Shown here: positions 29,897 to 58,789 of the stretch, one piece after another
Numbering within the stretch: the stretch's first letter is position 1
How the letters are laid out: each line of letters opens with the position of its first letter
Origin: Octopus sinensis
Lineage: Eukaryota
Reading direction: 5' to 3'
Assembly (NCBI RefSeq): GCF_006345805.1
Contig: NW_021833119.1
Location: 19,140-83,139 of the forward strand
DNA length: 64,000 bases
The notes under the pieces: generated by a model
Database searches by the model: none
The model's input: the letters and a program-made list of their open reading frames with translations, nothing else
Told to the model about the DNA's origin: nothing
Program-made: the position numbers and the translations under genes

Positions 29897-30746
29897 GAAA
29901 GTCAGATCTGTAAACAGTTCTACCCATTACACTCGTGGTTACTATTTCAAATGTCCTCGTTTTGGCGCGTTAAATTACCGGAAAAAATGATGCTGCAGAA
30001 AATACGTTACTGCAGTGGCCTTTGCCGGTTAGAGAACGTATTAATTTAAAATGAGGGTGAGAAATTAGATATTGATTTAATTAACATCGATTTCACACCA
30101 GTGGTCCAGCATATAAAAAGACTGAAGGCTCAGTAAATTTGTATTATATACATATTAGAGGGAAATCGATGTATTAAATCAATATCTAATTTCTCACCCT
30201 CATTTTAAAATTAAATTAATAAGTTCTCTAACCGGCAAAGGCCACTGCAGTAAAGTATTTTCTGCAGCATCATTTTTTCCGGTAATTTAGCGCGCCAAAA
30301 CGAGGACATTTGAAATAGTAACCACGAGTGTTATGAGTAGAACTGTTTACATGTCTGACTTTGTGCGGACGTCAAAGTATGCAGTCCTGCAAATTATATT
30401 CATCTGGACGATCACACCGATGATCTACGGACATTTACGTAAGTAAAATAAAGTAATATGTTAATAGTGAAACATGTATGTGAAGAATCCATATTTTTAT
30501 TGCTTTTTCTTTTGTCTTGCTCGATTACATTTTGGTTGTTTTGCTAATTTTTTCTTGAGAACATTTCTTAGTGGTAAGACCATAGCGGATCTATTTCTAG
30601 CATATGGATGTTCACATAGTGGTTTCCCTCTAATATGTATATAATACAATTTTACTGAACCTTCAGTATTTTTGTATGCTGCACCACTGTGTGAAATTGA
30701 TGTTAATTAAATTAATATCTAATTTTTCACCCTCAATTTAAATTTA
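29897..30746 (+). mobile_element. Non-coding hammerhead-bearing element: 531-bp monomer plus terminal redundancy (30162-30746) and an inverted partial copy (29897-30165)
   Basis: gaaat(c/t)gatg...ttcaccctca recurs at 30162 and 30693. 29897-30094 is the reverse complement of 30162-30362. Homologous to 58203-58789. Confidence 0.85.
30412..30483 (+). ncRNA. Type I hammerhead ribozyme motif (U4C variant)
   Basis: Stem I tcaca/tgtga, core CCGATGA, long stem II, GAAA, palindromic stem III ACATGT, cleavage triplet GUA. Confidence 0.75.
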
Positions 30747-30754
30747 TATATATA

Positions 30755-31924
30755 CAGGAGTTGGACAAAATAATGGAAACACCTAGCATCATAATTTTGA
30801 AATATCTATAAAACCGTCAAAAGCGTGTTTATTTTTATGCTTATTTATTATTATTGTTTCTTAATGTTTTGCTAAAATTGCTGTTTTTTTTCAGATGCCA
30901 TTAGAAAAAGGTAATTAAAATTCATTGAAATGACAGATCTATCGGACTTTCAAAGAGATCAAATTGTTGGTACTCGGATGGCAGGCGCTAGCGTAATGAA
31001 AACAGCTGAAATGTGTCGTGTAACAAGAAGTACTGACTTGAAAGTAATGATAACCTTTGAGGAAGAGGGAAAAACCTCCTCGTCGAAACAAAACTCCGGA
31101 TGGAACTCAAAACTTTCAGATAGGTGTCGTCGGATTCGTACGCGAATTGTTAAAAAGGATCACAAAAGTACAGCTCCCAAAATTACTGCAGAGCTTAATG
31201 ACCACCTCGAAAACCCAGTTTTCACAAAAACTGTTCGCCGGGAACTGCACAAGGCCGGATTTCATGGGAGGGCTGCAATCAGAAAACCACTACTTTCAAA
31301 ATCAAACGTTTCAAAGTGTTTAGTATGGAGTAAAAGCCTACAGAATTAGTCCCTACATCAGTGGAAGAATGTTATTTTCTCAGACGTGTCATCCTTTACC
31401 TCATTTCTGACCACCGGCCGAGTATACGTGTGGAGACAGCCAAGACAAGCATTTAACCCAGACTGCCATCTTCCAAATGTTAAACATAGAGGAGGTTCTG
31501 TAATTATCTGTAGGTGGGGGGAAGGCTATATCTTGGGAATCCGCCGGCCCAATGGATTTTCTTCATGGCAGAATTAATAATACTTAAGCATTTTGTCTGA
31601 TCAAATTCATCCTAAGGTTGCGGAACTGTTTCCGGAGGGAAACCTCATCTTTCAGGATGATAATGCACCAATTCAGACAGCTAAAGTTGTTACTGAATGG
31701 CACGAGGAACATTCTAGTGGCCACCACAGTACCCAGACCTCTATATTATTGAACATTTATGGTGCAAGTAACGAGTCGATATCCTCCACCATCATCACTA
31801 CAGGAACTGGAGACTGTTTTAGCTGAAGAATGGGCAAAAATTACTTTGGAAACAAACGTTTCGTACAATTCAAGCTGTAATTACTGCCAAAGGCGGTCCT
31901 TATCCATATTAAAATAAATTTGCT

Positions 31925-31925
<1 letters not shown>
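30755..31925 (+). mobile_element. Tc1-like transposon, decayed, right TIR missing
   Basis: Left TIR ta-caggagttggacaaaataatggaaacacc. Transposase MTDLSDFQRDQIVG...RKPLLS, VIFSD, FQDDNAPI, WPPQYPDL.IIEHLW. Confidence 0.9.
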
Positions 31926-31984
<59 letters not shown>

Positions 31985-32117
31985 GTGTGTGTGTGTGTGT
32001 GTGTGTATGTGTGTGTTTGTATATGTGCTTGTGTGTATGTAAGTATGTTTATACGTATGAGAATGGAGTAGAATTGATGAAAATTATGTATGTAATTGAT
32101 GTATAAATACGCATTTG

Positions 32118-32151
<34 letters not shown>

Positions 32152-33499
32152 ATACACACACACACTATATATATATTGTATACATACACTATATATATAT
32201 ATTTTCTACTTAACTCTCTTGTTTCACTTTCTCGTCTCCTGTTCTTTCTGACTTCATCAAACTACATCCTGTCACAGCTATTTTGGTGCCAATGCCAATA
32301 TAATTCTCGATTTTATTCTATAAAATCGTCTCGTGGCGCTGGTTCTACCGGCGACCAGCAGAAACATATCGTTTGGATCATCTTGATATTGGTTCATTAC
32401 ACAAAACATCTGCTTTCTGTAATATAGTTTGAGTCCCTAAACTCTGTTTCATGGCAGCGCCGAACTAGTTTATTTATCATAAATTCTTCATCGAACACCG
32501 TTGAGATTATTTATTTATTTACTGCTTAAAGACAACGGAATGCGGCCATGCTTGAGCACTACCGTGTAAGGGTAGCCCGAGTAAATGGCCCACAGAATTA
32601 ATTCAAAGTCTATTTTGTTTCCTATGGTCCATCTTCAGCACACCACGAGTACATAAACAAACCAACACCGAGGTGCAGACAAATATCTTCCCATTTGCAG
32701 AGAGAGAAAGAGAAAGACAGACACACCTATATAGATATGCATTTCTATAAATATATGCTTCGAATGCAAAGTACCTAATCGTGGGATAGAATCCAGAGCC
32801 ATAAAACTAACCTCTGAAATCAAGCTGACCATCATAAACATTGGTCTAGTATTGGTCACACCATACACTATATTCTTTGAGCTGAAAGGATGTAGTTAAA
32901 GTGTATCTTGGACCACATTACCCAATGTATTTTTCTATTTAATAGCCGACTGGTAAATTGACTGCTATTTTTAGCAGCTCTTCTAACCACGTGATAGAAC
33001 ATCCGTCGGCGTCGACGATGACAATTTCAGTCATTCAGTCACTTCAGCTACTTGTATTAACATGTAAGTGGCTGAGTGCTCCACAGACACATGTGGTGAT
33101 GATGGTAGTTTCTTGAGCCAACCTGATGTTATGATAAAGTATATGATGTCACAAAGAGGGATCAAGCCCAACATTTTGGGATTGAAAAACAGACTCCTTA
33201 GCTCCATACAGTGCCAACGTGCAGTCACCACGTTGTAGCCACCGTGTAGAATTCTAAGATTGAAAATTATGGAAATTCGCAGAAATTTGATATAATTTCT
33301 TAAATCTTATTGTTTTGTCCAAGACAAGAAAATGTCAAAAATAATCGAACCGAAACTTATAACCAGATTCCAAAACCAATATTCTGTTTTATCGATTTGT
33401 CATTACCTATCTGTGAAACATTGCAAATTGAGTGACCGGAGTAATAATCTTGGCAATCAATGCTAATCGATAAATCAGAGGTGTTGTTTAGATTGGACC

Positions 33500-34055
33500 C
33501 CTGCTGATGGGAGTGGGGGTGGTGGTGGTGGTGATATTGAAAGTTGAGGTAGCAGCAATAGAGGGATTGTCGGTGGGTATGGTGATGATGATGGCGGAGT
33601 TTGAAGTGGTTGCGGGTGGAGGAGATATTTGGGTAGTTCCTTTGTAGCCCATGGTGTTTTTGGCGGCGGTGGCATTGGTAGTAGTTGTTTTGGTGTTATT
33701 CTTGTGGTGATGGAAAATGGTGGAGGTGGTGGTGACGGTCATAGTGGTCGTGGTGGTAGAAGTGACGGTGACAGATGGTGGTGGAGGTAGTGATAGAGGT
33801 GACGGTTGTGGTGGTGGTGGTAGTGGTGGTGGTGGAGGAGGCGGGGGAAGTGGTGGCGGCGGCACTGGGGTGGTGGTGGAGTCACTGGTGGAGGCAACGG
33901 TGGAGGCGGTGGTGGAGACAACGGTGGTGGAGACAACGGTGGTGGAGACAACGGTGGAGGAGGTGGTGGAGACAACGGTGGAGGAGGTGATGGAGATGGT
34001 GGTGGCGGCGGCAGTGGTGGAGGTGGCGGCGTAGGCGGTGACAGCAGTGGTGTGG
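33500..34055. repeat. (GGT)n-rich low-complexity tract with 15-18 bp ggtggagacaacggt minisatellite
   Basis: Direct inspection. Confidence 0.85.
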
Positions 34056-35325
34056 TAGCAGGGTGACCTGAAAGCTGAAATCCAGCCTGATATCATTCTT
34101 AGCAGATTTTGGCCATAAAATACTAAGGCTTTGAGGCCAACGAGTCAGTTTTCCATCCATCTCAGATCCCGAAGATGTGAACTTTGAGGCTCTGAATTAG
34201 CAAGACCTTAAATTAACATGGAAGTGGATGAGTATTCCTCAGACGTGTGTACCATTAATGTAATTCTTATGCAGAATTCTCGTGACTTTAGCGGGTGACA
34301 AGGCTGGTCCTGGAATGGGAAACACAGCCCACTGGGCAGGCTTCGGCCTATTTTCTGCCAACCCAGTTCTATTGACAAGTTCTGGGCTGACCCAAGTCTA
34401 TGGAGACATTTGATCACACCCGGGAAGGCGTGAGAGAGGGAGACAAAAAAGAGAGGGGTGAGAGGGGGAGAAAGAGAGATGGGCAGGTTGGAGGAAGGTA
34501 GCTGCAGAAGGGGGTATGGGAAAGAAGAAGAAGGGGAGAGAGGGTAAAGAGGAAGGTAAGTTGCATGGAAATAGGTTTGTCGATAAAAAGAGAGCAAAAA
34601 TGTTATGTGAGTGTTGTAGTGGGATCGCGAGGAAGTTCATTTAAACATGCTATATCCTCTTGGCAGTAACGCGATCTGCTAAAGTTAGCAGTCAATAACA
34701 ATGCAAAAGAGCCCCTTGAAGGTCGATAAACCTGCTAGAAACAGCAGATAAATCTCATCGAAATAGCATTGGGTAACCTTGGGCTAATAGCAACACAAAA
34801 TCCACGCGGGAGAGCAGCGACACCAAAACAATAACGTGAGTCTTTCTCTTGGGACTTTTCTTTGTCCCATTCTCAATTTCCGCTTCTTTAACTCTTTCTC
34901 TCTCTCTCTATTTTTCTGTCTACCAATCTATGAACCTGTTTGCCTATCTCTTTATCGCTCTCTCATTATCGTTCTCTCTCTCTCTCTCTCTCTTAACAGT
35001 TCTAATTCTATGAATATATTTCATTTAATTATATCTCTCACCCTCTCTTCTTCTCTTCCTTTACGCACACACACTCATTCATTATTTTCCCTTATCACAA
35101 AATTATTATTTCACAAAATCTCTTTTCTGCGTGATTTATTGAAATTATCTTCCCATTATTCAGTGAACGAAGACGGTGTATCTGGATTAGTTTCTATCAC
35201 ATTCTCCACAAAATATATGCATGAACACATAATATACATATTATATATATATATTCATTTATATATATATATACATACGCGTTTCTACATATATGTGTAT
35301 ATATACACATCTATATACATACGTA

Positions 35326-35370
<45 letters not shown>

Positions 35371-35605
35371 TTATATATAGATATGTATATACATTTATTT
35401 ATATACATACATGCCTTTCTAAATATGTGTAGATACACACATGTTTGTATATATACATTTATATACATAATAGATATGTATGTATACATGTATGCAAATA
35501 CATTGGTTATTGAAACTAAATATTTATATCGTGGTTTCACGCCACTACGTCCTTCAAGCAAGAAGACACACACACATACATGGATGGGGTGCATACACCT
35601 ATATA

Positions 35606-35650
<45 letters not shown>

Positions 35651-35942
35651 TCTTTATTCTCTTCACCCAGTTCCCCCTATTTTCTATTTTCATTTAACCA
35701 CTAATATTAAAACTCTTAATCCATGGATATTTTCTGCGGATTAAACTCAATCAATTCCTTCAAATGAGTTAATGGCTTCTCCGCCATCGCCTTCCTGCTC
35801 CCTTATATACGTTTATTAGCTTCATCCTCCTTTTTCCTTCTCCCTCTCCTCCACACCGCATCATCATTCAAGTCTCTCTCCCCCTCCTCATTATAGTCAT
35901 CCGTCAATGTGTACAATTATGTATGTTTAAACATATATAAAC

Positions 35943-35993
<51 letters not shown>

Positions 35994-36740
35994 CGTGTGT
36001 GTGTGCGTGCATGTGTCTATATATATGTGTGTGTGTGTGTGTGTATGTATATGCATATATATGTATATATTTGAAATATGTGTGAGTATATATATTTATA
36101 GAAATATATATGCACCCACATATACATATATATATATATACACACGCACACATGTATTTTTATGTGTGTGTGTGTGTATGCACACATGCATGCAGATACA
36201 TATATAGATGTTTGCGTGAATGTGTGTGTGCGCTTGATGCAAATGTGTTTATTGTTCCGTGTATGCATATACCGTGCGTGAGCACTGTATGTACGAGAGC
36301 TGTTCATACATGCGTGTATATTTGTGTTGAGAAACCCGCAAAACTTAATTATAAACTATACATGGATGCTTAATTAATTGCAAAATACAACCCCAATCCC
36401 AGCACACAGAGATCGATCATAAATGAAAAATCCGAAAATAATCATGAAGTTAACTGCGAAACAATTTTTAAAAAGAGTAATGACGATTATTATCAGTTAC
36501 AATTTCCTCGTGATCCTTTCCTGCCTAATACTTAACGCAGTAACATCACATGACGTTATGGTCATTTCACTGTGATGAGGCTAAACTGTTCCTATAATAT
36601 ACATATAGACATGCATTCAGACATATATATATAGTTAATCCAAACAAGAAAACACAGAAAAAAACAGAGAAAAACACAGCAACGCGAGGACGTGGAACAA
36701 TTAAAGTATTATTTGACGCTCAGGAAAGAAGGGAAGGAGG

Positions 36741-36775
36741 GTTTAACGTTTCGAGCGGAGCTCTTCGTCGGAAAC
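36741..36775 (-). ncRNA. Minimal type I hammerhead ribozyme motif (Penelope-type)
   Basis: Minus strand: gttt CCGACGA a gagc-tcc-gctc GAAA CG TT aaac. Stem I gttt/aaac, palindromic AACGTT stem III. Confidence 0.75.
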
Positions 36776-36919
36776 AAGGAGAAGGAAAGATCCCGAGAAG
36801 GGAAGACAGAGGAAAAAAATTTTTTTACTGGTGGTGCTCAAGAGATCACATGTTGAAAGAACAGAAGTTGAAAGGTAGACGAATCATGATTTTTAAAAAC
36901 AAGAGTTTCATAGACAAGG

Positions 36920-39630
36920 AATGTGTGTGGGTGCGTGTGTGTATGTGTATGTGTGCAAGTGTGTTTGTGCGTGCGTGCGTGTGCATGTGTGTGTGTGTAT
37001 GTATGGTGAATAATAGGCATGGAAAGCTAGCTGTCATAAAGGAGTGGCACTATTTTGTATCCAGCGAGGTCAAAACCAGGTCAAAAAACAAAGGGGTATA
37101 TGTGTGTGCGTGTAAGTATATGTATCATGTGTATGTGTTGTTTGTAGTGTGTGTGTGTGTGCATGTGTGTGTTCGTGTTTGTATGCGTAGAGTTTGGGTG
37201 TGTGGCGAGTAACTGTGCTTAACCTAGTGTATGTATGCGTGTGTGCTTGTACTTGCGTGTGTGTTCGTGTGTGTATGCGTAGAGTTTGGGTGTGTGGCGA
37301 GTAACTGTGCTTAACCTAGTGTATGTATGCGTGTGTGCTTGTACTTGCGTGTGTGTAGGGATGTATGTGTGGGTTCATTTGTGTGAGTGTGTATGTATGT
37401 ACGTGTATGTGTGTGCGTGTATGTGTGCGTTTGTATGTGTTTATGTGTATGTATGCGGCTGGTGTATATTGTGTATGTGAGTTTGTGTGTGTTTGTACGT
37501 GTGTATGTGTGTGTGCGTGTATAGTATATAGATGTAAATGTGTGTGTGTGTGCGTGTGTGTGTACGTGCGTGCGAGTGAATGTATGTATATATGTGTGAG
37601 TGTGTACAATGTAGAGGCTTATATGTGTGTTTATATGTTTATATGTGTGTATGTATTTATGTATGTGTGTATGTGTGTGTGTGCGTGTATGTCTGTGTGT
37701 GTGTATGTATGTGTATGTATGTATGTGTGCATGCGTGTATGTGTATGTATGTAAGTATATGTATGTATCTATGTATGTATGTGTGTACGTATGTGTGTGT
37801 GTGTTTGTACGTGTGTATGTGAGTATGTATGTGGGTATATGTATGCGTGTGTGTATGTATGTATGTGTGTATGTGTGTGTGTGTATATGCGTGTGTATGT
37901 ATGTGTGTGTATGTATGTGTGCCTGCGTGTATGTGTGCATGTGTGTGTGTATGCATGTATGTATATGTATGGGCGTATGTATGTATCTATGTATGTATGT
38001 ATGTGTGTATGTGTGTGTATGTGTATGTATATGTATGTGTGTGTATGTGTGTATGTATGTAAGTGTGTATGTGTGTGTGTATGTATGTATGTATGTATAT
38101 GTGTGTGTATGTACGTATGTATGTGTGTATGTATGTATTTATGCATGCGTGTATGTGTGTATATATGTGTGTCTGTGTATATACGTATGTATGTACGTGT
38201 GTGTGTATGTATGAATGTGTGCGTGCGTGTGTGTGTATGTGTGTGTGTATGTATATGTATGTTTGTGCATGTATGTATCTATGTATGTATGTGTGTATGT
38301 ATGTGTGTATATATGTATGTATGTGCGTGTATATATGTATATGTGTATGTGTATGTATGTATGTATATGTACGCGTGTGTGTATGTATGTATGTGTATGT
38401 ATGTATGTGTGTATAGTATGTATGTGTGTGTTTGTATGTATGTATGTGTATGTATGTATGTGTGCATGCGTGTATGTGTGCATGTGTGTGACTGTATGTA
38501 TGTATATATGTGTCTATGTATGTATGTGTGTATGTATGCGTGTGTGTACGTATGTATGTGTGTATGTGTGTGTGTGTATGTATGTATATGTATGCGTGTG
38601 TGTATGTAAGTATGTGTGTATGTATGTATGTGTATTATGTGTGTGTGTGTATGTATGTGTGTATGTGTGTGTGTATGTATGTGTGTGTATGTATGTAAGT
38701 ATGTATGTAAGTGTGTGTGTGTATGTATGTATGTGCGTATGTATGTGTGTGTATGTATGTGTATATATGTATGTGTGCATGTGTGTATGTGTGTATGTGC
38801 GTGTGTGTACGTATGTATGTATATGTATGTGTGTGTGTATGTATGTATCTATGTATGTATGTATGTGTGTATGTGCGTGTATGTGTGCGTGTATGTATGT
38901 ATGTATATGTATGTGTGTGTATGTGTGTGTATGTATGTATGTATGTATGTGTATGTGTATATGTATGTATGTGTGTGTATGTATGTTTGTATGTGTGTGT
39001 GTATGTATGTATGTGTATATGTTTGTATGTATGTATGTATGTGTGTGTATATATGTGTATGTATGTATGTGTGTGTGCGTGTGTGTATGGGTATGTGTGT
39101 GTATGTATATGTATGTGTGTGTATGTATGTATGTATGTATGTGTGTATGTATGTATGTGTGCATATGTGTATGTGTGTGTATGTATGTGTGTATGTATGT
39201 ATTTGTGTATTTATGTATGTGTGTGTGTATGTATTATGTATGCGTGTGTGTGTGTATGTATGTATGTATGAATGTATCTATGTATGTATTATGTGTGTGT
39301 ACGTATGTGTGTGTGTGAATGTATGCGTGTAGGGGGGGTTGGAGTTGTGTGGGCGTAAGGTACATGCGCGTGCTTGCGTGCGTGTGTGCGCTTACGTGCG
39401 TGTATCTGTGCGTCTCAGCTAGGTGTTTATAGGAGTGTGCTATCTGTATGAGTATTGTCCCTGGTGTTTGTGCACGAGCATGTCTGTGTGTGCGCGTGGG
39501 GGTGTGTGAGTGTGTGGGTGTGTGTATAGGTGTGGAAGTATGTATGCGTACATGTGCATGTACGTTGTGTGTGTGTGGTGTGTTGGGAGTAGGTGTGTTC
39601 GTGGGTACGTGAGTATGTGTGTGTGTGTGA
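36920..39630. repeat. ~2.7-kb compound (TG)n/(TATG)n microsatellite
   Basis: Direct inspection; includes a ~90-bp local duplication near 37170-37350. Confidence 0.95.
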
Positions 39631-39726
39631 CTGCATAAGGACAATTATAAAAAATAAAAATAAAAAAATATTTAAAAAATAAATAAAAAATAAAAGATTC
39701 TAGTGGGGAGAAGTGGAGCGCAGTCA

Positions 39727-42130
39727 CTAAGAGGAGGGGGCTGTGTTGAGTCCGTGTGGGGTTAGAGTCTGTAGAAGGAATATGAGCCTTTGCTCCAAGT
39801 GAAGCCTAGATTGTGGAGAGCCGTTGTGTGGGGCAAGACCAAACACCGAGATGTCATCGGGGGAATGGCTGGCCGAGCGGAAGTGACGTGATACGTGAGA
39901 ATTGAACCGTAGACAAACATCCCTCATGTTCGGCGAATCGGTCTGACAACCGGCGTCCCGTCTGTCCTATATACAGCATTCCACAGAGGTTGCATTTAAT
40001 GCAGTATACGAGTCCAGACGAGGTGCACGTAAAAGAATGTCTGATACGTACAGTTCGTTGGTTGGAACAGGTGACAGCAGTGGTGTTGGTGATTAAGGGG
40101 CAGGTGTTGCAGCGGGATCTGGAGCACGGGAAGGATCCGAGTGGGGCCGAGGGGGAAGAAGGGAGGGTGCTACGGACCAGGAGGTCGCGTAGATTCCGGG
40201 CTCATTTGAAGGAGGACAGGGGTGGGTTGGGGAAAATGGGGTGGGTCGTGGAATCGAGCTGGAGACGACGGAAGGCACGAGGTATCTTCCGACGAAGGGG
40301 TAGAGTAGAGGGGTGGAAAAGGAGAGGAAAGGGGGTGCGGTTGGGTGTGGGTGAGTGGAAGGAAAAGGGCGGTGGTGCGGTCGATGCGACGAGCGCGGGC
40401 GAGGGCGTTCAAGACCAGGGTAGGTGGGTATCCTCGAAGTCTGAACAGGCGGGCTAGGTATTGAGACTGGGTCTCGAAATCCTGGTCGCGGCTGCACAAG
40501 CGTCGGAGGCGGAGGAACTGGGAGTAGGGGATGGCCTGTTTGGTGTAGAAGGGATGGGAGGAGAAGTTGAGATAGAGGTGGGAATCCGTGGGTTTGAAGA
40601 AGGCGGATGTGGTGAGAGAGTGGGAGGGGTGGTCGATGCTGAGTGAGATATCAAGGAAGTTAACGGAAGTATTGGATATGGTGGGAGTGAATTGTAGAGA
40701 GGGGTGGAAGTTAGAGAGGAAAGAGATGAAGTGGCAGAGTTGTTCGCGGGAAAGGGAGGTGGCGCCTATACAGTCGTCTATGTAACGACCGTATAGTTCT
40801 GGGGTCGGCCCGGAGAATTGGGAGAATACTTGGGCCTCAATGTAGCCAACAAAGAGATTGGCGAAATTGGGGCCCATTCTCGTTCCCATCGCGATCCCAG
40901 ACAACTGTTGGTACGTTTCCCCGGCGAACGTGAAACAGTTGAGGGTTAGGACGAGTTCTGCCAGGCGGAGAACGGTGGGGGTGCCAGGGGTGGGGTCGGG
41001 ACGACGGTCGAGGAAGTGTTGGAGAGCTAGGAGACCGTCGTTGTGGGGAATTACCGTATACAGGGATTTGATGTCAAGGGAGAAGAGGAGGTGTGAGGGG
41101 CTGGAAGGGAAGGAAAAGGAATTGAAGAGACGGAGGGCGTGGTTGGGAAGGGAGGGCTTTGACTAAGGGGGACAGGATGCGGTCAAGGTATAGGGAAATG
41201 TGTTCAGTTGGGCAATTACTGGCGGAAACGATGGGGCGGCCAGGGTTATCGGGCTTATGAATTTTGGAAAGGAAATAGATGATGGAGGTGCGGGGTGTAC
41301 GGATGATGAGGTTGGTGGCGGTGGGGGGAGAGCAGAAGAGGAGATGAGTTCGCAGATGGTGGACGACACTCGCTGTTGGTAGGAAGAGGTGGGATCAGAG
41401 GGGAGGAGGCGATAGAAGAGGAGATTTTGAAGCTGGCTGAGCGCTTCCTCCCTGTAGAGATCCGCGCACCACACCACCACTGCTCCGCCTTTGTCCGCCG
41501 GTTTGATGACAATGTCATTGCGGCGACGGAGGTGGCGAAGGGCACCCAATTCAGCCTGTGTGAGGTTGTCTCGAAGAGGTCTTTTTTTAAAGTTAAACCG
41601 GTTTACCAATGCGTTGCAGTCGTTCACAAACGAATCTAGGCTACTGAATTGGCCCGGGGGCGGCGTCCAAGTTGGATGGGCGGCGCCCCAGCTCTAAAAA
41701 GCAATCTTTATTGTCGTGACGCTGCGGAGACGCGTGGAAGAAGGCGCAAAGTTTGAGGCGGCGCAGTAACTGGTTGACGTCCGTCCATGTCTCGAATTCG
41801 TCACAGTGGCGCGTGAGAGGCGTGAAGCGGAGTCCCTTACTGAGGAGAGAGCGCTCGGTAGTGGAGAGGGGGAGATTGGGGCGTATAGTGACAACAGTGC
41901 GAGGAAGCGGGGTGGTGGGATGAGTGGGGTCAGGAAGAGGGGGTGCAGAGGTGTGGGGAGGAGAGTTGGGGTGGTTCGGTGAAGATGGGGTAGGCGTAGA
42001 AAGGTCAGGGTGGGGGTGTGTGTTGTCCGTGGAGGGGGAAGGGGGAGGGGTGGAGAGAGTTGGGGGAGCTGGAGGGGAGGATGTGGAGGATGTGCAGGAG
42101 AGGGGAGGGGAAAGAGGTGAAGGGTTGAGG
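39727..42130 (-). pseudogene. Frameshifted Penelope RT + GIY-YIG endonuclease
   Basis: IVIKPADKGGAVVV, GIAMGTRMGPNFANLF, YGRYIDD, NFLDI, FKPTDSHLYL, AIPYSQFLRLRRLCS, linker PCSRSRCNTCP, GLVYCIKCNLCGMLYIGQTGRRLSDRFAEH. Confidence 0.93.
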
Positions 42131-42290
42131 AAGTGGTGGAGTTTTGTTTTTTGTGTGTATTATATATTATTATATATATTATTATATATATATATATTAT
42201 ATATATATTATATATATTATATATATATTATATATATTATATATATATATATATATTATATATATATATTATATATATTATATATAATAT

Positions 42291-42322
<32 letters not shown>

Positions 42323-42387
42323 TATATATATATATCTATATATAGATAGATATATATATATATATGCATAATATATATATATATATA

Positions 42388-43450: not shown

Positions 43451-43499
43451 TATATATATATATATAAATTAGAAAAAAAACCTTTAATCAATTCAAAAT

Positions 43500-45454: not shown

Positions 45455-45486
<32 letters not shown>

Positions 45487-47564: not shown

Positions 47565-48032
47565 GTGAGAGAGCATACCATCAAAGTGATACAGGCGTAA
47601 AATATGCGAAGCCCAGTATACCCGTCTGATAAGTGTACACCAGGCACATGCCTCACAACCACTTGTGCACAACATGGTGATCTCATATCAAGATAAACAG
47701 CGAATGACCTTGCAGCTGGGACCCAGTTAGAATTTTCTTCAGGTTGATTAACCCATCCCGCTCAAAATTCCCTGAATAAGGGTTGCTTAAGGATATTGAA
47801 CACTCAGGTTTTCAAAGGTGAATTCTCTAAACCCCAAGAATTCCTCTCAACACATGGCTATGATGCTCCACGACTGCTTCTGCTGATGATCAGAGATGCA
47901 CACACTAAGGTCAAACAGCTGACAAGCAAATCTGTGGTATTGAGCAGAATATTTGCTGTCGGCCATCTTTCATACCAAGACAAAACAATGTACATGATGA
48001 CACTTCCAATCAGTAAAGATCAGAAGCCATAA
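47565..48032 (-). repeat. Second copy of the 9265-9790 repeat
   Basis: Collinear similarity with internal deletions. Confidence 0.8.
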
Positions 48033-48037
48033 AGCAA

Positions 48038-50040
48038 GTGGTAGATATGATAGGGGACGTCCACCTTGTAGATATTTGGAGAGATCATATCCCAAAAGCA
48101 CAAGGCTACACGAGGAGATGTTCAAAGCCTATTAGACAAGCAAGGATAGACTTCTTCCTGGTTTCACAGAATTTGTATTCATTTATTTGTCAGTCCTCTA
48201 TAAACGTTGGGTACAGATAAGACCATTCTATTGTAGACATCAAAATGAAATTTTCTAAAGAAGACCGTACAGCTACATATTGGAAATTTAATAACTCCCT
48301 TTTAAGAGATCCCAAATACGTCTCAGCGGTGAAGAAAACCATTAGCATCGTGGTTAAGCAATACACCCCCACTTTAGATCCTGACAGAGATACTAGTTCA
48401 GTTAATATGTCTGAGAAAATTACACCACACTGTATAATTGCGGTTATAAAGTCACTACTCATTTCAAAATTGAACAAGCTCTTCCTTACTCTCCCAAATC
48501 CACCGGGTACATTTCTCCAGGAACTAAACAAAATATCATTCTAATTCCTCTGAAGTGGAAAACAGCATAAAATTAAGAGAGCAGTGGCTTACAAGCCTGT
48601 TAAAGAAGGTGGGCTTGGTAAATTCGAAGCTTTTGCTTATGTCAGCTCTTTAAAACTATCCTGGACGAGAAAGTTGCTAGACATTCACGATGAATCTAAA
48701 TGGAAACATTTATACCATGCCTCCTCCATAAAACTGAAAAATTTGCTGAATTTGGTAACATTTTCCCGGGCAAACTCGCTTACACAATCAAGAATGATTT
48801 TTTGTATGATTGTATTTCTGCCTTTGACAAGTTTACAAATAAGATGGAGACTAATTCATTTGATTGATTCTTAACAGAACCAATTCACTTTAATAAACAC
48901 TTAAGGGTCGGTAAAGAGGTAATCTTCTTTCCTGCGTGGTTTGAGAGAGGTGTTAGCAAGATTCGTGTCTTTATCAATTTAGATGGATCTTACCGTACCC
49001 AAGAAGAATTCCAGAATTTTTAAAAACTAGATACAAATTTTCTCCAGTATAATGAGCTTATAAGGGCGATTAAAAGCTACCAAACAAAGTTTAAAATAAG
49101 CAAACCTACTGCTTTCCAACATTTAGAGGATAATACAGCTATCGGAAAGCTCATGTCTGTTAGGAAAGGAGCCAAATGATACTACTATGCTTTAAACAAT
49201 GTTGAGACTTGTTTGATATTCAAACACAAATGGCAAGAGTGTATGCTTGGTGAGCTGGAATGGGAAAACATATTTTTTCTACCTACAAAGACAACAAATA
49301 CGATGGTTCCAGTTTAAAATTATGCATAATATTTTAGCAACTAATTCTCTATTATTCAAGATTAAACTGGCTGAAAGCAACCTGTGCACTTTTTGTCAAC
49401 AGGAGGTGGAGACGGTGTCACACCTTTTCTGGTATTGTGAATGTGTACAGGTATTGTGTATGTGAATTGCCAGAAGGCAACGCTTCTTAGATTTGCTGTA
49501 TGAAAAGTGCAAGCCTGTTCGCAACATGAAACTTGACCCACAGCCCATTCGCCCATTCTATTCGGATTGAGAAAAAACACATATACTGATGGCATCTTTC
49601 ACTTGCTAATATTATAAGCAAAATTTTTTATATACAAACATTTCAGATACTTTGTGCAAGACAGATATCGAATTGGAAAAAGAAAAAACAACAGATCATA
49701 CAATGAAAACAAGCAAGAGGAATTTTATAAAAAAAGATGGAGCCTCTACCTTGAGTTTGCAAACACGTGGTGGTCCTCTAGTGTTACTTCTTGTATTTGG
49801 ATTTTATGAGTGATTGAGTGTGTGTAGTCTATTTTATTTTACTCTATTTTTTTTCTCCTTTTCCCTCTCTTCTCTTTCTTATTTATTAACACATTTTTAT
49901 TTCTGTTGCTTTCTCTTTTTCTCTTAAAAAAAAACGTCCTGTTCTCTATTTGTTTTACACAAGACTTCACGTTCTCCTGGCCATGCGGTTTCAAATTATA
50001 ACAGGGAAAACTGGAAATAAAATGTTAATCATAAAAAAAA
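48038..50040 (+). mobile_element. L1/Tx1-like LINE, internally deleted (APE C-terminus joined to post-RT region)
   Basis: LVDIWR...ARIDFFLVS...DHS, WKFNNSLL, IKSLLISKL, EGGLG, FQFKIMHNILATN, CTFCQQEVETVSHLFWYC. AATAAA and an A-tract lie near 50017-50040. Confidence 0.85.
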
Positions 50041-50386
50041 ATATTTTTAATATGCACGTTCTTAACGTTCATATATTTTTATATTTCTATCTCTTAATAT
50101 TCCGAATGTATTAGTATATGTTTTAGACAACTCTATCATATTAAATCCGTATATGTATACACCAGTCGTAGTCTGCCTGAGTTCAACCTCTTCTCTGTAT
50201 CTCTTGTACTTGTCTAACGACTCGGGTTTGACTCGAGCACTTCCATGCTTTATATCGTTTTTTTTTTAAATCATAATTATATATGTATGTATATATGTAT
50301 GCATATGTATGATTTTTTTTAATATATTTATGTGTGTGTGTGTGTGTGTTCGTGTGCGAATGTATGTATGCATATATCATATCGGA

Positions 50387-50615
50387 GGCGGCGAGCTGGC
50401 AGAAACGTTAGCGCGCCCGGCGAAATGCTTAGCAGTATTTCGTCTGCTGCTACGTTCTGAGTTCAAATTCCGCCGAGGTCGACTGTGCCTTTCATCCCTT
50501 CGGGGTCGATAAATAAAGTACCAGTTTCGCACTGGGGTCGATGTAATCGACTTAATCCCTTTGTCTGTCCTTTTTGTCCCCTCTATGTTTAGCCCCATGT
50601 GGGTAGTAAAGAAAT
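50387..50615 (+). mobile_element. Family B SINE (tRNA-derived, Nin/Deu-like central domain) with 15-bp TSD
   Basis: B-box gagttcaaattcc, central gcctttcatcccttcggggtcgataaa, and TSD atatatcatatcgga at 50372-50386 and 50616-50630. Further copies at ~6770, 7824, 21735 and 50664. Confidence 0.9.
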
Positions 50616-50831
50616 ATATATCATATCGGAGAAATCATTATGATGAATTAATATCATCATCAGGACGGCGAGTTCAAATTCCGCCGAGGTCGACTTTGCC
50701 TTTCATCCTTTCGGGATCGATAAATTAAGTACCAGTTGCGGATTGGAGTCGATCTAATCGGCTGGACCCCGCCTCCAAAATTTCGGGCCTTGTGCAAAGA
50801 GTAGAAAAGAATTAATATCAGCAGCAGCAGC

Positions 50832-50862
<31 letters not shown>

Positions 50863-51377
50863 ATAGTAATTCTTGTTATTGTCGTTGTTGTATATTGCGA
50901 ATACTTGAATTAATACAAAATACTGGTACGAGAGTGGTTGCTGTTGTTGTCCATGCTGTGATTCTACACTGAAAAACGGATGAACGGCGATAAAAACGAA
51001 CGGAAGAAACGGTGTGAGAGAGAGAGAAAGAGAGACCGACAGAGAGAGAGAGAGGGGAAAGAAGTGAGAGAGAGGGATAGAGACAGAGAGAAGGTGGAGA
51101 GAGAAGAATTGTGTTGCATAAAAGGAATTTCAGAAAATAGAGAAAAATATTCCTTAAATGCCATAAAACATTAAATAAATAAAAAAAATATTTGGATAAC
51201 ATTCAAAGATTAAAAAGGGAAAGAGGTAATGGTGTTAGCTACATTGCGAAAGAATGGGTCTTCGGAAGCAACCATGGGAAAAGGACCAAGAAAGACAAGA
51301 AAGAAGAGACGCTGCAAAATGTATCATGCAGAGGTGCATTATAGATAGGTGTTGTATATGTATACAAGTATATATAT

Positions 51378-51412
<35 letters not shown>

Positions 51413-51656
51413 TATATATATATATATATATATATATAAATCGTATATATATATTTACATATATACAAATATATTGTACCAAAGCATGGGCATCCATAGA
51501 TACGTGAATACAAGTATATGTATGTATTTGCATATATTTATAGAGAGAGAGAGATTCATATATATGTATACGTGTATGTATAAATGTATGTATGTATATA
51601 TACTGCAGAATATATATATATGTACATATATAAATGCGTGTGTGTGTGCATGTATG

Positions 51657-51695
<39 letters not shown>

Positions 51696-51959
51696 TATAT
51701 ATATACGTAAATGCAGGGGTCGTTGATGTAGCAGTTAATTTGTTTAGGCACGAAAAAGAAGCCATACTTATACATTAAGGAAAGTGTGGTATTCTAAAGA
51801 GGTTGCAGTGTCATAATGGCTGCAAAATAATAATAACGGTGAGGAGGGGGAGGAGAAGAGGAGAAGAAGAAGAAGAAGAAGAAGAAGAAGAAGAAGAAGA
51901 GCAACAACAACAACAACAACGATGACGACAACAACAAGGACAAGAACAATTTCGTGTCT

Positions 51960-52691
51960 CTAAGTTGTTCCATTCGCTTGCAGTGACGCGTTGAGTGCAG
52001 ACGAGAAGAGTGTGCTCTGCAATTTTTCTTTTACAGTCAAGATGACTAAGCGCATTGAGGAAAGATACTCGATCAAATTCTGCCAAAAACTTGGTGATAG
52101 GCAAGCGCAAACTATCGAGAAGATTTAGAACACCTTTAGAGATGATGCTATGGAATACCACAAATAAAGGAGGGGTACAACCTGTTCAAAGATGGCCGCA
52201 CCTCAGCGGGCAGTGAGCCACCCTGTGGAAGACTATCGACTAGCAAAAAAAACGAAGGTTCGAGGAGTAATCTATGAAGTCTGTCGAGTGACTATTGAGA
52301 AGATTGTTGCCGAAGTTGGAATCAGCCGTGGGTCAGTTTATTCCGCCCACGTCATCCAAACAATCCTCATCAAGCAAAACACATCACGTGTTCGTCAGGC
52401 TTCCTACTTCCCAGACTTGGCTCCGTGTGACTTTTGGCTATTCCCAAAGCTCAAAAACAAAACATTCGATGGGAGATTTGAGCCATCAATGGACATTCAG
52501 CTAAAATTCGACAGCACAGCTCTACAACATCCGAAAAAGTGATTTCTAGAAATGTTTCCAACAATAGCAGGGACGCTTGCAGAAATGTGTAGACTCTCAA
52601 AGCGAATACTTTCAAGGAGACTAATTCAATATTGTGAGTTTTCTAATATTACTTTTTGGTCAAAGGTCAGATACCTCTTGACTACACCTCG
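51960..52691 (+). mobile_element. mariner transposon remnant
   Basis: MTKRIEERYSIKFCQKLG, IVAEVGISRGSV, YFPDLAPCDFWLFPKLK. Right TIR-like end ...cacctcg. Confidence 0.85.
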
Positions 52692-52734
52692 CATACATAT
52701 ATGCGTATATATACATTATATTTATATATATATT

Positions 52735-53091
52735 CTTGTTTCAGGCATATGATTGCGACAGTGCTGGAGCACCACCCTTAGTCGAACAAATCGACACCAG
52801 GACTTACTATTTTTAAGCCTAGTATTTATTCTATCGGTTTCTTTTGCCGCACCACTACATTACGGGGACGTAAACACACCAGCATCGGTGGTCAAGCAAT
52901 GCCGGTGAGATAAACACACACACACACACATATATATATACACGATGGGCTTCCTTTAGTTTCCCTTCTACCAAATCTACTCACAAGGCTTTGGTCGACC
53001 CGAGGCTATAGTAGAAGACACTTGATCAAGTTGCCATGCAGTGAGACTGAACCCGGAACCATGTTGTTGGTAAGCAAGCTACTCCTACACC
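52735..53091 (-). mobile_element. Full-length family A SINE
   Basis: Reverse complement of 17105-17526. Confidence 0.85.
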
Positions 53092-53157
53092 TATACACAC
53101 ACACACACAAATGTTTTCATGTATATATACATAATACTTATACACATTTATACATGA

Positions 53158-53197
<40 letters not shown>

Positions 53198-53731
53198 TCT
53201 CGAGTGCGTGTGCATAAGTGCGTATACATGTACCTGTGTGCCTATGTTTGTTATGTTTGTCTTCAATTGTATGTTTCTCCTATTATTCTACTGTTGCGGG
53301 TAATTAAACTTCTGTTTACCTGTTTACCTAGCAGGATAATGACGACGAGACATCGAAATCGATGGTGATGATGATGATGATGATCGACGGTATCATCATC
53401 ATCATCGCCATGGTCATCCGTTGTCGTCGTCTTTGCCGACGCCGTCATCCTTATCGTGATTACTGTTGCTTTTGCATTCTTCTTGCCGATGGTGATGCTG
53501 ACGTTCCCTTCAGGATGATTTCCAGACAAAGATGAGCTCGATTGCTTATTGACACGGGTTAAGGTGTGTAACTGAATAGTTGGATTCCAATTGGCTGTGT
53601 ATGGCTGTGTATACCTGCGTACATAAGTTACCCTAAGGCATGCATCTACCTATAAATGTTTCATACATATATACACACAACCTATGCAAATACGCGGTGT
53701 GTATTGATGTACATATCTATCTATCTATCTA

Positions 53732-53804
<73 letters not shown>

Positions 53805-55071
53805 CACGTGTATATATACATATGTGTATAGAAATTTATGTATATGCATTTAAGATATTTTTGTATGTGGCTTAGTGGCTAGGGGTATTCGGCTCACAAT
53901 CGTAAGGTCGTGAGTTCAATTCCCCGTGATGCGTTGTATCCTTGGGCAAGACACTTTATTTCACGTTGCCCCAGTCCTCTTCCGTTCATCGCATCAGCTC
54001 GTCTTAACCGACGGAATTCCAGTGCATATATTTATATATCTACTAGCATTCCGTCGGTTATATATATATATATATATATATGCATAACTTGTGTTTCTTT
54101 CTTTCCTCCTGATACAGCTCAATGAATCAGACGTGTTTTAGTTTGTTTCCTGTCCAAGCTACCTCACTTCGTTTAGGCTTAGCAGCCCTTCCTATTTGTT
54201 TTCACTATCCTGTTGGTGTTACCAATTTTGACCCTCCGAAAAATCCCAAATTAGATTTAACTTGCTTTGTGGGAGCAACTATTTTATCGAAGGCGTTTCG
54301 TGTCGTGACATGCTCAAAATACGGATTAGAAAAACAGCCGGCAAGCGATGAAGGCTCGTTCTTGTTGTTGCATGTCTTGTTTTCCATTTATTTCCATCGT
54401 TGTTCACAAAAAAAGTTCATACTCTTTATATTCGTATTTCGCATTCCATATTTTCATGTATGTATATATATATATATATGACGAGCAAGAGAGGTTTAAA
54501 ATCTTTAAATGAGATTTAAGTTGTAACGACATCGAACAGTAAATTTTATTTGCCAACATAAGGAGGCAGTTCTACACTGAATTATGTTACTCCTTTTTAA
54601 CCCCAGGATAACATCTTTTCCAGCAGGTTATCGGCGCACAACCTGCGTCTGCTATATTGTGAGCAAGGGAGCGAACTACTCCTCTCTAACTTTAGCAGGA
54701 CCAGTAGACCATGGTTTCTAGGTCGTTTCCTGTCATCGGTGCCGGATACCTGCCGGTTAGAGATGGTAGTTACTCAATCTTACAATATATAAACAGACAG
54801 TCGTGGATCTCGTAACGACCAAAATAGCTAGTTTTAAAATCTAATATGATACTGTCTAATATGATATTTCTATACGTTTTCCTTCCATTCGTTACAATTC
54901 ACCACTTGATATTTTTTTATCGAACCATTCCACCGTATACATATACACACATATTTCAAACGTATATACTTACATACACAAACAAACATACATAATATAG
55001 TATGTGTGTATATAAACACATACATATATATGTATGTGTGTATATAAACACATACATATATATGTATGTGT

Positions 55072-55103
<32 letters not shown>

Positions 55104-55553
55104 TTTCAATTTACAGAAAACAAAAGACAAAGATAGGTGAGGGAACAGTAAGCAAGTGTATTAGTTTAACGCTCGGGAAAAATGGAAAAGTCTTTGACGC
55201 AAGAGAATATATACATATATAATTTATGGAACGAAAAATTGTCGAAAATGGAGAACTGATAGATGCGTATAGAATGCTCATTCAAAATATATAACTAATT
55301 TCAGGTGTATATTTTTAATACGCTCCCGAATATTTGCTTATACAAATGTTAATCAATATTTATTGACATATAAGCAAACATACATAAACAAGATTATATT
55401 GAGTGATTCTATAACCGCTCGTTAACATGTACTATCATGTATGGTATGTCTATGTGCATGTAAAAATATATATAAATATATTTACGTGCGTGTGTGGGTG
55501 GGTGTTTTCTCTTTTCTTTCTCGCCCTTCTCCATCTGTTTTCTCTCTTCATTC

Positions 55554-55589
55554 CTTTCTGTAGAAGATCTTAAGCTCGAAACGTCAAAG
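55554..55589 (+). ncRNA. Minimal hammerhead-like motif (degenerate core) in a Penelope pLTR-like fragment
   Basis: cttt CTGTAGA a gatc-ttaa-gctc GAAA CG TC aaag; flanks resemble 36634-36830. Confidence 0.6.
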
Positions 55590-55754
55590 CCTTTCGTTTT
55601 TCCTGACCTTTAAAGTAATACATGCGTGAAAAATAATGCACTCCACCTATCTCTGTCTTATGTTTTCGACTTTTTTTAGAATTTTGAATATATTATATAT
55701 ATATATATATACATACATTTCAAATGAAATATAAAACAGTAAACAAGGGATGTC

Positions 55755-55846
55755 GTGGTACACATGTTTCGAGCTTTATAAAACAACATATTCTTACATC
55801 AATGTATAATCGACATAACAGATAGTTTAAAGCCCTCTTCAGCCGC
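55755..55846 (-). ncRNA. Type I hammerhead ribozyme motif
   Basis: gcgg CTGAAGA gggcttta...taaagctc GAAAC atgt GTA ccac. Confidence 0.8.
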
Positions 55847-56332
55847 ATGCAATTGCTACCCAAAGACTTGTATTACATTATGAAAGGTCTGAAAAAGAAT
55901 ATTTGGTATTATTTATAATGTTAGGTAAACTGAGTATCACTGAGAAAGTATGTTTGTAAATCTTCATAATCAAATAGGTGTACAGGGTATTATTGGACTC
56001 CAAAAATCCGTCCATACTGTATCATCAGTCAATATAGAGTGAATGCTGGGTAGATTCCAGTTGGGTTCATTCCTCTTATAAGGGAAGGAAATAAGGAGGA
56101 TTGGATGTTGAGAAAAAAGAAAAATAAGAATAGATGGGAAGAGAAGGAAACGTTAATGATGTTGGATCACAAAAGAAATATATATATAAATATAATTATA
56201 AAAGATAATAAAATATAATAAAAGATAAAGATATAAAAATATAAAGATATAAAGAACGTCAGGTATAAGGTCATAAATTCTAGCAATGTGTTGTGAAAAT
56301 ATAAAATGTACAAAAAATAAAATAAAAAGCAT

Positions 56333-56425
56333 GCGGCTGAAGGAGGGCTTTAAACTATCTGTTATGTCGATTATACATTGATGTAAGAATATGTTGTTTT
56401 ATAAAGCTCGAAACAAGTGTACCGC
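56333..56425 (+). ncRNA. Type I hammerhead motif with 1-nt core insertion
   Basis: gcgg CTGAAGGA gggcttta...taaagctc GAAAC aagt GTA ccgc; perfect 4-bp stem I. Confidence 0.7.
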
Positions 56426-56462
56426 GACATCCTTTGTGTACTGTTTTTTTTTATTTCATTTG

Positions 56463-56509
<47 letters not shown>

Positions 56510-56528
56510 GGTGTACGTGCGTCTGTTT

Positions 56529-56559
<31 letters not shown>

Positions 56560-56819
56560 AGTGTGTGCGTGCGCGTGCGCGAATTTGTACTTTCATTAAC
56601 TTGATGATAATGCTCAAAATGTTGTGATCTTAATGCATATAACGATGATGTTGAAGATAATGGCAATAGTGATGACGAAAATGATGACGGTGGTGATAAC
56701 GAGTATGACGATGATGATGCTAATAGTAATGAGGATGATGATTATGATGATGAAAAAAAATCAATAAACTTTTCATAACGATACAAGGGATTTTTCGTTT
56801 CGCCTTCATCTCGACAGCC

Positions 56820-57990
56820 ACCACTATCGCCATCATCACCACCTACACCGCCATCGCTACTACCAATACTACTATTACTACTATAGTACTACTACCACCA
56901 CTCCATATTACCACCACCACCACCACTCCACCACCACCACACCATTACTACTACAACTACAACTACGACCATCACCACCACTACAACTACTACCTCTACT
57001 ACTACTACTACAAGCAGCTTCAATGTCACCAGTTGCTTATTCCCACCTGTACTCATACCATTCTTATCAAGATTACCACCACTACAACCATACCCTACAC
57101 TTTCCGCAGCACTACTACCACCACAATCACCATTATTGTCACATTTATGACAAACCATAACAGCAGCAACAACAACCACAAGCTTCGCCATCCTCATCAT
57201 CATTTCTACTACTACCTCCAGCACCAGCTCTGCCGTTTCGAATACAACAATCGCCATTACCTTCACTACAACAACTACAAAAATATTATCCACCACCATC
57301 ACAACAATAACAACAACAACCAGCACTACCACCACCACCACTCCTACCATACCCATACTTTCCGCAGCACTACCGCCACCACCAATAAGACTACCTTTAC
57401 CATCACCACCGTCATAGCCATCACCTCACATCATCACCACCACCATCAACACTACCGTCACCACCACCACCACCACCACCTCTCACACTATCATCATCAT
57501 CGCCACCCTCATCACCACCCCACCCCCTCCTCTGCTGCCAGTATGCATAGCAATGTTATCAGTTAAAGAGAAACCTGTGATGTGTGGGTCCCTTAGCTTC
57601 AGGGAATAAGAGAAGGGGCGGAAGCGGGAAAATAAGGGGAGAATGGGAGGATAAGGAAGAGGAGGGGGAAGAAGGGGAGGAGGTAGTCTGTAGTGGAGCG
57701 TGTGTGGAGGGAATGATGTTAGGGGGGTGTAAATTTTGTTGGTGGTATTGGTTGCAGTAGTGGAAATGGCGGAAGTAGATTTAGTGAGGGATGTGGTTGT
57801 AGTAATTCCTTGATATAATGTTGGTGGTGGTGAATATGATGGTGCCAGTCGTTGTGGTTGTGGTAGTGGTGGTGGTGGTGGTGGTGATGGTGAAGGTGGT
57901 AGGGCCGGTCGTGGTGATTATGGTAGTAGTGGGGGTTGTGGTGATGGTGCCGGTCGTAGTGGTTGTGGTGGCGGTGTCGGTGACGGTGAA
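56820..57990. repeat. (ACC)n tract followed by (GGT)n tract
   Basis: 56820-57530 is CAC/ACT-rich and 57700-57990 is GGT-rich. Confidence 0.85.
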
Positions 57991-58202
57991 CTACGCTGAA
58001 CTATTGAGAAATCTACAGTTACTCTATCCAGATTTCAAGGTTTATACCTGTAATTATTTGGGCACTGGGATATGTAACACACTGCTTAAAAATCAATCTT
58101 GAAAAATTAGGCTTCTCAAAACCAGAAAGGAGAAAGCTAACTCGAAAACTGCAGATCCAATCTATAACTGGAACTGTAAAAATCTATAAAACTTTCCAGA
58201 AG

Positions 58203-58789
58203 TTGAGAACAATTCTTAGTGGTTGAGACCCTTGCGGATCTATCTTTAGCGAAAGAGCGCCCACATAGTGGATTTTCTCTCATTTTTATGTATTAATAAT
58301 ATTTACTGAATCTCAGTTTTTTATGCGCTAAACCACTGGTGTTAAATTGATGTTATTAAATTAATATCCAATTTTTTCACCCTCATTTTGATTTTAATTC
58401 TAAATTAATATGTTCTCAAACCAGCGTTAACTACTGCAGTAAATTATTTATGCAGTATTTATTTCCGAGAATTTGGCGCGCTAGAACGAGGGCATTTGAA
58501 TATAACTGCGAATATAATAGGCCGAACTACTCGTATTTTTGACCTCGTGTTAATATCTGGCGTGCAGTTCGACAAATTATATTTTATGACAAATCTCACT
58601 GAGGATCTGTAGATTAATTGTGTAAGTAAAATTGCATAATTTATTAACAGTGAAACAATTGTATGGGGTTAATCTATATTTTTGTTATTTTTCATTTGTC
58701 CTGCTCGCTTACGTTCATAGTGTGCTAAATTTTTCTTGAGAACAATTCTTAGTGGTTGAGACCCGTGTGGATCTATCTTTAGCGTAAGA
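58203..58789 (+). mobile_element. Second copy of the ~532-bp hammerhead element, different start point, terminal direct repeat
   Basis: ttgagaacaattcttagtggttgagaccc recurs at 58203 and 58736 (period 533). Collinear with 30162-30746 after rotation. Confidence 0.85.
58595..58667 (+). ncRNA. Type I hammerhead ribozyme motif, intact core
   Basis: ctca CTGAGGA t ctgt...aattgtgtaa-gtaaaa-ttgcataatt...acag t GAAA CAATTG TA tggg; palindromic ACAATTGT stem III. Confidence 0.85.

Follow-up and report, generated by a model that had tools for sequence, protein, structure and literature searches.

A non-coding 532-nt hammerhead repeat of Octopus sinensis with the insertion footprint of Penelope-like elements

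Introduction

The mobilisation of animal retrozymes by Penelope-like elements has so far been argued from co-occurrence and from terminal-repeat similarity (PMC7229834; bioRxiv 10.64898/2026.07.22.740005). A Penelope-like reverse transcriptase (RT) uses two internal start sites that bound a tail, with both strands extended (PMC11167929), and Penelope-like insertions display a tail, an inverted 5′ copy and a bias for (TA)n (PMC8557442). Thus tail, inverted copy and two start sites are already known for these elements. In the axolotl, hammerhead motifs with a short stem III cut as dimers (PMC7229834). Described here is a repeat found twice, as copies A and B, in a window of 64,000 nt of Octopus sinensis DNA (contig NW_021833119.1, positions 19,140 to 83,139); "window" denotes this whole stretch throughout. 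The repeat is a dispersed, non-coding 532-nt hammerhead family that was probably spread by a Penelope-like RT-endonuclease copying a predicted circular RNA unit. It is a retrozyme-like family working like a non-autonomous Penelope-like element.

Results

Unit coordinates are given in the register of copy B (position 1 is window 58203). The start of copy A, at 30162, recurs at 30693, 531 nt on (84-86% identity over 57-62 nt), and that of copy B (58203-58789) recurs at 58736, 533 nt on (94% identity over 54 nt). Each copy has ~55 nt beyond one unit of 531-533 nt, in agreement with a preliminary description of this DNA, which had proposed one unit plus ~50 bp. Positions 2-443 of A align with B 58344-58786 (72% identity, E 5.5e-63) and positions 394-585 with B 58203-58396 (79% identity, E 4e-35), an offset that corresponds to the rotation of ~140 nt stated earlier. 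The 532-nt unit has a GC content of 32-34% and a longest stop-free frame of 69-70 codons, consistent with the earlier statement that neither copy has an open reading frame (ORF). The inverted arm of A, which meets the main arm via a 4-nt overlap, had gone unmentioned, as had two features of the hammerhead motifs: U4C in the core of A, and the U-U mismatch at the base of stem II, present in both motifs.

Table 1. Features of the 532-nt repeat and of the Neptune-type element in the window
Feature	Position	Strand	Remarks
Copy A, main arm	30162..30750	+	member of subfamily A, 1.1 units long; stops 3′ at site Y, with short (TA)n following
Copy A, inverted 5′ arm	29895..30165	-	unit positions ~71-342; outer end coincides with neither of the two sites
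Type I hammerhead motif of A	30412..30483	+	core CCGAUGA (U4C); U-U at stem II base; palindromic 6-nt stem III
Copy B	58203..58789	+	member of subfamily B, 1.1 units long; stops ~35 nt before site X, next to (GT)n tract
Type I hammerhead motif of B	58594..58668	+	core CUGAGGA; palindromic 8-nt stem III
Site X	58285..58295	+	unit position ~85-92; the upstream one of the two 3′ ends preferred in the family; lies inside B
Site Y	58390..58400	+	unit position ~190-198; downstream preferred 3′ end; internal in B
Neptune-type Penelope-like element	36640..42160	-	helper in the preliminary description; frameshifted RT/GIY-YIG frames 39854-42159; 3′ terminal repeat with minimal hammerhead at 36771

Searches of the 2.72-Gb genome with whole units gave 3189 and 3204 first-look candidates, and those with 76-nt probes gave 998 and 1217, figures that do not equal copy numbers; from each set, 40 candidates were scored. 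In a tree of 41 units there are two fully supported subfamilies headed by A and B, 22-28% apart, of which A is star-like and B contains nested sublineages. An exact hammerhead pattern, whose spacing leaves out subfamily A, has 139 matches in the genome against 0 for the reversed control and reveals further subfamilies. The matches listed (100 of 139) are spread over chromosomes C1-C20 and form no run of more than three. The repeat family is also present in a sequencing run under another species label.

Ends were mapped for 185 arms from 108 loci, after removal of 12 loci fetched twice. The 3′ ends fall at X in 87 arms, at Y in 64 and elsewhere in 34, so that 151 of 185 lie within two windows (X, 80-103; Y, 183-212) that were drawn from the data and together make up 10% of the unit. 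TA/TG repeats abut 131 of the 151 X/Y ends, versus 6 of the 34 others. The segment from X to Y is a "tail" of 105 nt. The 5′ ends are scattered, although some of them cluster near 520-11, where two predicted stems have their base. The same end pattern is found in 16 further loci obtained with the hammerhead probe. Insertion targets are (TA)n tracts, in which target-site duplications cannot be read. Unit ends are set by X and Y and not by long terminal repeats (LTRs), and a layout of LTR, primer-binding site and polypurine tract is lacking.

Important is the way in which arms are paired. Among 61 head-to-head pairs, 37 are X/Y, one is X/X and none is Y/Y; the remaining 23 have an end elsewhere. 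Given an X arm, the X/Y pairing departs from independent choice (P 4e-6), and 35 X/Y pairs are left when two segmental duplicates are discounted. In 29 of the 37 the Y arm passes X, and the arms therefore overlap in sequence. Such an overlap is unlike L1 twin priming.

Permutation of the unit is thus not free: there are two fixed 3′ sites and only the 5′ ends scatter. The scattered circular permutations of the preliminary description hold for the 5′ ends and fail for the 3′ ends, and free circular permutation is rejected. The ~140-nt rotation between A and B is explained by A ending at the downstream site Y and B ending ~35 nt short of the upstream site X. Reverse transcription is indicated by the 3′ ends fixed on (TA)n, by the truncation on the 5′ side and by the X/Y inversions. 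X/Y pairs, tail, inverted 5′-truncated copy and microsatellite target make up the known "tail plus inverted copy" footprint of Penelope-like elements, and Penelope-type mobilisation of the 532-nt repeat is regarded as highly probable.

Copies A and B belong to the long tail of the length distribution, and most copies of the family are shorter than one unit. In the short-probe sample, which is unbiased for length, arms measure 22-543 nt and none of 85 exceeds one unit by 20 nt, versus 42 of 100 in the whole-unit-probe sample. All 42 of these long arms re-enter the 532-nt unit. Two hammerheads are found in copies L002, L008, L010, L013, L022, L042 and L053, and three in L007, whose 2.8 units make it the only one of 124 loci with more than ~2 units. 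Long tandem arrays were seen neither in the 124 loci nor among the listed pattern matches.

The nature of the template can be approached through the arms that reach the predicted cleavage site. Of these, 26 of 29 run through it and 3 stop within 10 nt, and no insertions occur at the cleavage junction in the alignments. A cleaved linear monomer read once is thereby ruled out as template. What lies upstream of a unit is, in all 42 long arms, the same 532-nt unit. In subfamily B, units and arms within one insertion are 5.1-5.2% apart, versus 8.6-9.9% between insertions. Shared non-majority alleles number 141 for tandem units (29.5 expected) and 70 for arms (19.4 expected), which is 4-5 times expectation within one insertion, and lineage-diagnostic differences per 1000 sites are 4.7 and 2.7 within insertions versus 29.3 between them. 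Both arms and all laps of one insertion come from one source sequence. The earlier proposal that a circular or multimeric RNA had been copied slightly more than once around is sustained as regards a template continuous across the cleavage site; copying beyond one lap is not the rule, as the length-unbiased arms show. None of the sequencing runs listed as containing the repeat is on record as RNA. Three runs that were guessed to be RNA yield contigs with parts of the unit, and 37-74% of these contigs continue into dissimilar sequence. In run X1, one contig breaks off 1 nt beyond the predicted cut, and other contigs cross it; the junction is also present in DNA.

Rfam at the gathering threshold and a strict scan each gave 0 matches in the window; a looser scan found the motif of A and that of the Neptune-type element, and missed B through the pattern itself. 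Since the Rfam and strict scans are empty, the putative hammerhead identity rests on manual reading and covariation. The cores lie at 30417-30423 in A (CCGATGA) and 58599-58605 in B (CTGAGGA), with predicted cuts after 30478 and 58663. In 26 hand-picked plus-strand units, whose relatedness inflates the shuffle test, 96% of cells in the stems pair versus 23-46% in slid controls, and two-sided changes occur in 7 of 18 pairs. The core differs from the majority less often than the rest of the unit (1.4% versus 5.9% in B, 2.4% versus 3.7% in A), and at free core position 7 all four bases occur. The cut triplet has A, C or U as its last base in all of the 49 B units examined and reads GTA or ATA in 40 of 42 A units. 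At the level of the motif, the single type I hammerhead claimed for each copy is upheld, as is the claim that the two differ in sequence and keep their structure, the stems being covarying. Stem III, a palindrome of 6 or 8 nt, lacks the length for a stable hairpin and can pair between two copies (-4.6 and -6.4 kcal/mol), like the axolotl motifs that cut as dimers (PMC7229834). Folded as a circle, the unit is far more stable than shuffled sequences, with z of -4.1 to -8.0 in 8 of 9 copies and -1.7 in one, on the sense strand only. Between the subfamilies 38 pairs have changed, 13 of them compensatory and 16 one-sided, with the rest broken.

The Neptune-type element of the window had been proposed as helper, a role that the data do not support. 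It belongs to a young, abundant family. Full-length copies (L091:5219-7333, L092, L093) have an ORF of 1008 aa and a CA-repeat-rich 3′ region of ~3 kb before the terminal repeat. The minimal hammerhead of this family (window 36771, minus strand; L091:7640-7690) also departs from CUGA, with CCGACGA; a sister family has TTGAAGA. Among 30 terminal-repeat loci of the window family, 28 have a single 3′ end on (TA)n; there are two 5′ repeats, and inverted arms occur in 0 of the 30. The window family and its sister, with no nucleotide match to the unit, a single 3′ end and no inverted arms, are rejected as source or helper.

Two AT-rich Neptune-type families with DKG, CxxCxxC and GIY-YIG motifs were traced from weak protein matches in flanking sequence (Pfam gave one RVT_1 match among six proteins tested); the survey of helpers covered Neptune-type families. 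One of the two, a coding family (L191-L210/L261-L280), has two 3′ ends ~50 nt apart, here X′ and Y′. In a sample of 20 short loci, 7 of them chosen for an opposite-strand match, and 20 earlier loci, 10 of 12 head-to-head pairs are X′/Y′ with one arm per site, one pair being a duplicate. Copies of this family are ~85-92% alike at the 3′ end, like those of the 532-nt repeat, and no hammerhead was seen by eye in the 3′ region (L192:2280-2335; L261-L280). As source of the unit both AT-rich families are rejected, there being no match outside two loci that hold both. On footprint and similar divergence, the likeliest helper may well be the family L191-L210/L261-L280, an assignment that is tentative. 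The second AT-rich family (L212-L230) is present at window 59313-59656 as a head-to-head 3′-end pair, with both arms at one site and flanking TA/CA repeats.

Other features of the window are as follows. Directly right of A, at a TA tract, a terminal repeat and transposase start that we take to be Tc1/mariner-like lie at ~30756-31200. Further inverted-repeat pairs are found at 60744-61434 (which may be another two-arm insertion), at 55688-56496 (in a layout like that of miniature inverted-repeat transposable elements) and at 18645-18748. A tandem repeat of 279 nt in 2.5 copies (93% matches) occupies 17631-18334; Tandem Repeats Finder covered periods up to 500 only, and the general repeat search was dominated by microsatellites. 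At ~200-3540 is a frameshifted non-LTR retrotransposon, presumably R2/NeSL/Hero-like, with RT and restriction-like endonuclease motifs and no Pfam match in the two frames tested.

Discussion

In the proposed mechanism, a copy with two hammerheads (~770 nt or longer) would be transcribed, the hammerheads would cleave as a dimer formed by way of the palindromic stem III, and the monomer so released would be closed by a host ligase. A Penelope-like protein would nick both strands of a (TA)n tract, one strand priming at X and the other at Y; each complementary DNA (cDNA) would halt at a variable point, sometimes past one lap, and the two cDNAs would be joined head to head. A circular template is considered probable from the sequences, with moderate confidence; it is favoured because truncated daughters cannot otherwise regain units and long donors are not seen. 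A more specific and more speculative form of this mechanism, possible but rather doubtful, is that a dimeric Neptune-type enzyme copies a viroid-like RNA circle by rolling-circle target-primed reverse transcription, with a different fixed start site for each target strand and a slow U4C hammerhead that keeps the circle closed.

Several observations weigh against the proposed mechanism. U4C is found in 35 of the 42 A units, in 14 of the 49 B units and in 20 of the matches listed (100 of 139); this change reduces activity in vitro considerably, but is compatible with viroid infectivity (PMC3088659). At minimum energy the isolated motifs take a fold other than the active hammerhead (z -0.1 to -1.9), and 9 of the 38 pairs changed between subfamilies are broken in one of them. 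In vitro, hammerhead cleavage is unnecessary for insertion, and unprocessed RNA is the main substrate (PMC11167929). The within-insertion test is weak in the star-like subfamily A (6.7% within versus 6.9% between; 3 of 12 tandem pairs below the median). Two units of L007 are just 1.2% apart, and this locus thus grew partly by later local duplication. The unit has no sequence likeness to any of the four Penelope-like families tested. Finally, a homogeneous tandem donor, by way of a linear multimer, gives the same DNA products.

This last point leads to the most serious alternative, in which family and Penelope-type copying are the same and donors of two or three units are transcribed into a linear multimer that serves, uncleaved, as template. 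With U4C, U-U and a short stem III the hammerhead would be slow, and circles would arise as a by-product or not at all. Such a template explains equally well why arms read through the cleavage site and why some copies have several units; U4C is common, the main substrate of a Penelope-like protein is indeed unprocessed RNA (PMC11167929), and extra units can arise by local duplication, as in L007. However, each daughter is 5′-truncated, and the number of units could not be regenerated without a circle or local duplication. There are several nested B sublineages, each with internally homogeneous multi-unit copies, and only the single locus exceeds ~2 units. In addition, core and stems have been preserved although the subfamilies are 22-28% apart, and this conservation calls for a reason to cleave. 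A linear multimer is therefore regarded as unlikely, though it deserves to be kept in view.

Less probable still is that the unit is the pseudo-LTR (pLTR) of an autonomous Penelope-like element that was not found, the copies being its 5′-truncated ends. The footprint is that of Penelope-like elements, many Xenopus retrozymes are related to pLTRs (bioRxiv 10.64898/2026.07.22.740005), and the sample of 124 loci is small against ~1000 or more candidates per subfamily probe. The preliminary description had itself named such an origin from an autonomous element with fixed ends; the 3′ ends are fixed, but in the 124 loci there is neither a joined coding body nor an RT plus GIY-YIG ORF joined to the repeat. 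In all 42 long arms the unit is preceded by a further unit, and the 49 free 5′ flanks have no common body, two matching pairs being an unmasked short arm and a 74% low-complexity match. Of the 124 loci, 6 have Penelope-like protein matches in their flanks, and in no case does such a match adjoin a 5′ end, whereas in the control many of the 30 Neptune terminal-repeat loci continue into the element body. This reading is improbable, and an origin of the unit from an old pLTR may nevertheless be considered. An origin of the copies as pieces of satellite arrays, raised earlier too, with spread through recombination of DNA, is largely refuted and highly improbable: tandem units and the local duplication in L007 exist, but the longest copy in 124 loci has 2.8 units, the copies are dispersed with no run above three among the listed matches, and the ends bear the signs of reverse transcription.

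The repeat thus probably represents a circle-templated retrozyme whose insertions themselves show the footprint of the enzyme, with defined start sites, a defined target and a candidate enzyme family. The earlier characterisation as retrozyme-like and dependent on a Penelope-like RT stands for the non-coding hammerhead repeat with a Penelope-type footprint, and falls for the helper in the window. The one-site-per-strand rule is a constraint on how Penelope-like elements form inverted ends. If the more speculative form of the mechanism is correct, the 37:1 X/Y asymmetry, common to a coding family of the same genome, would explain the tail plus inverted-repeat structure of Penelope-like elements in general, and an enzyme would be named that mobilises a retrozyme unlike itself. 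The proposed circle-templated step can now be tested in the existing in vitro system (PMC11167929). No report was found in the literature of a tail/inversion footprint on a retrozyme, of a one-site-per-strand rule or of this 532-nt family, and the supplements of PMC7229834 and bioRxiv 10.64898/2026.07.22.740005 may list relatives.

Among known systems, the non-autonomous elements of Chlamys such as MRC1 (PMC8557442) are similar in being non-coding Penelope-like dependants with head-to-tail copies. They resemble their autonomous partner at the 3′ end, a likeness not found for the 532-nt unit, and unlike them the unit carries a hammerhead motif.

The Penelope-like elements themselves (Poseidon PAc, PMC11167929; Neptune and Naiad, PMC8557442) share with the repeat two internal RT start sites that bound a one-end tail, an inverted 5′-truncated copy, AT-rich or (TA)n targets and a type I hammerhead. 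They differ in that the repeat is without an ORF and its tail is 105 nt, versus 30-40 nt in theirs. Stem II of the hammerhead is long in the repeat, in contrast to the minimal form in the Neptune of the window. For PAc in vitro no difference in start site was observed between strands (PMC11167929), whereas here one arm uses X and the other Y almost always.

The metazoan non-LTR retrozymes of coral, mussel and axolotl (PMC7229834; bioRxiv 10.64898/2026.07.22.740005) are likewise non-coding, low in GC and strongly self-pairing, with one type I hammerhead per unit, and coexist with Penelope-like elements. Motif A resembles axolotl HHR_Amex1, with its 1-bp stem III and palindromic tetraloop, and motif B resembles HHR_Amex2, with a 2-bp stem III and U-U at the base of stem II (PMC7229834). 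The unit of 532 nt compares with a typical 150-450 nt (PMC7229834) and up to 972 nt (bioRxiv 10.64898/2026.07.22.740005). In contrast to those retrozymes as described, which form arrays, the copies here are mostly dispersed insertions of less than one unit. A long extra hairpin is present on stem II, U4C is fixed in successful lineages, the circle is predicted only, and the insertions display the tail and inverted-arm footprint.

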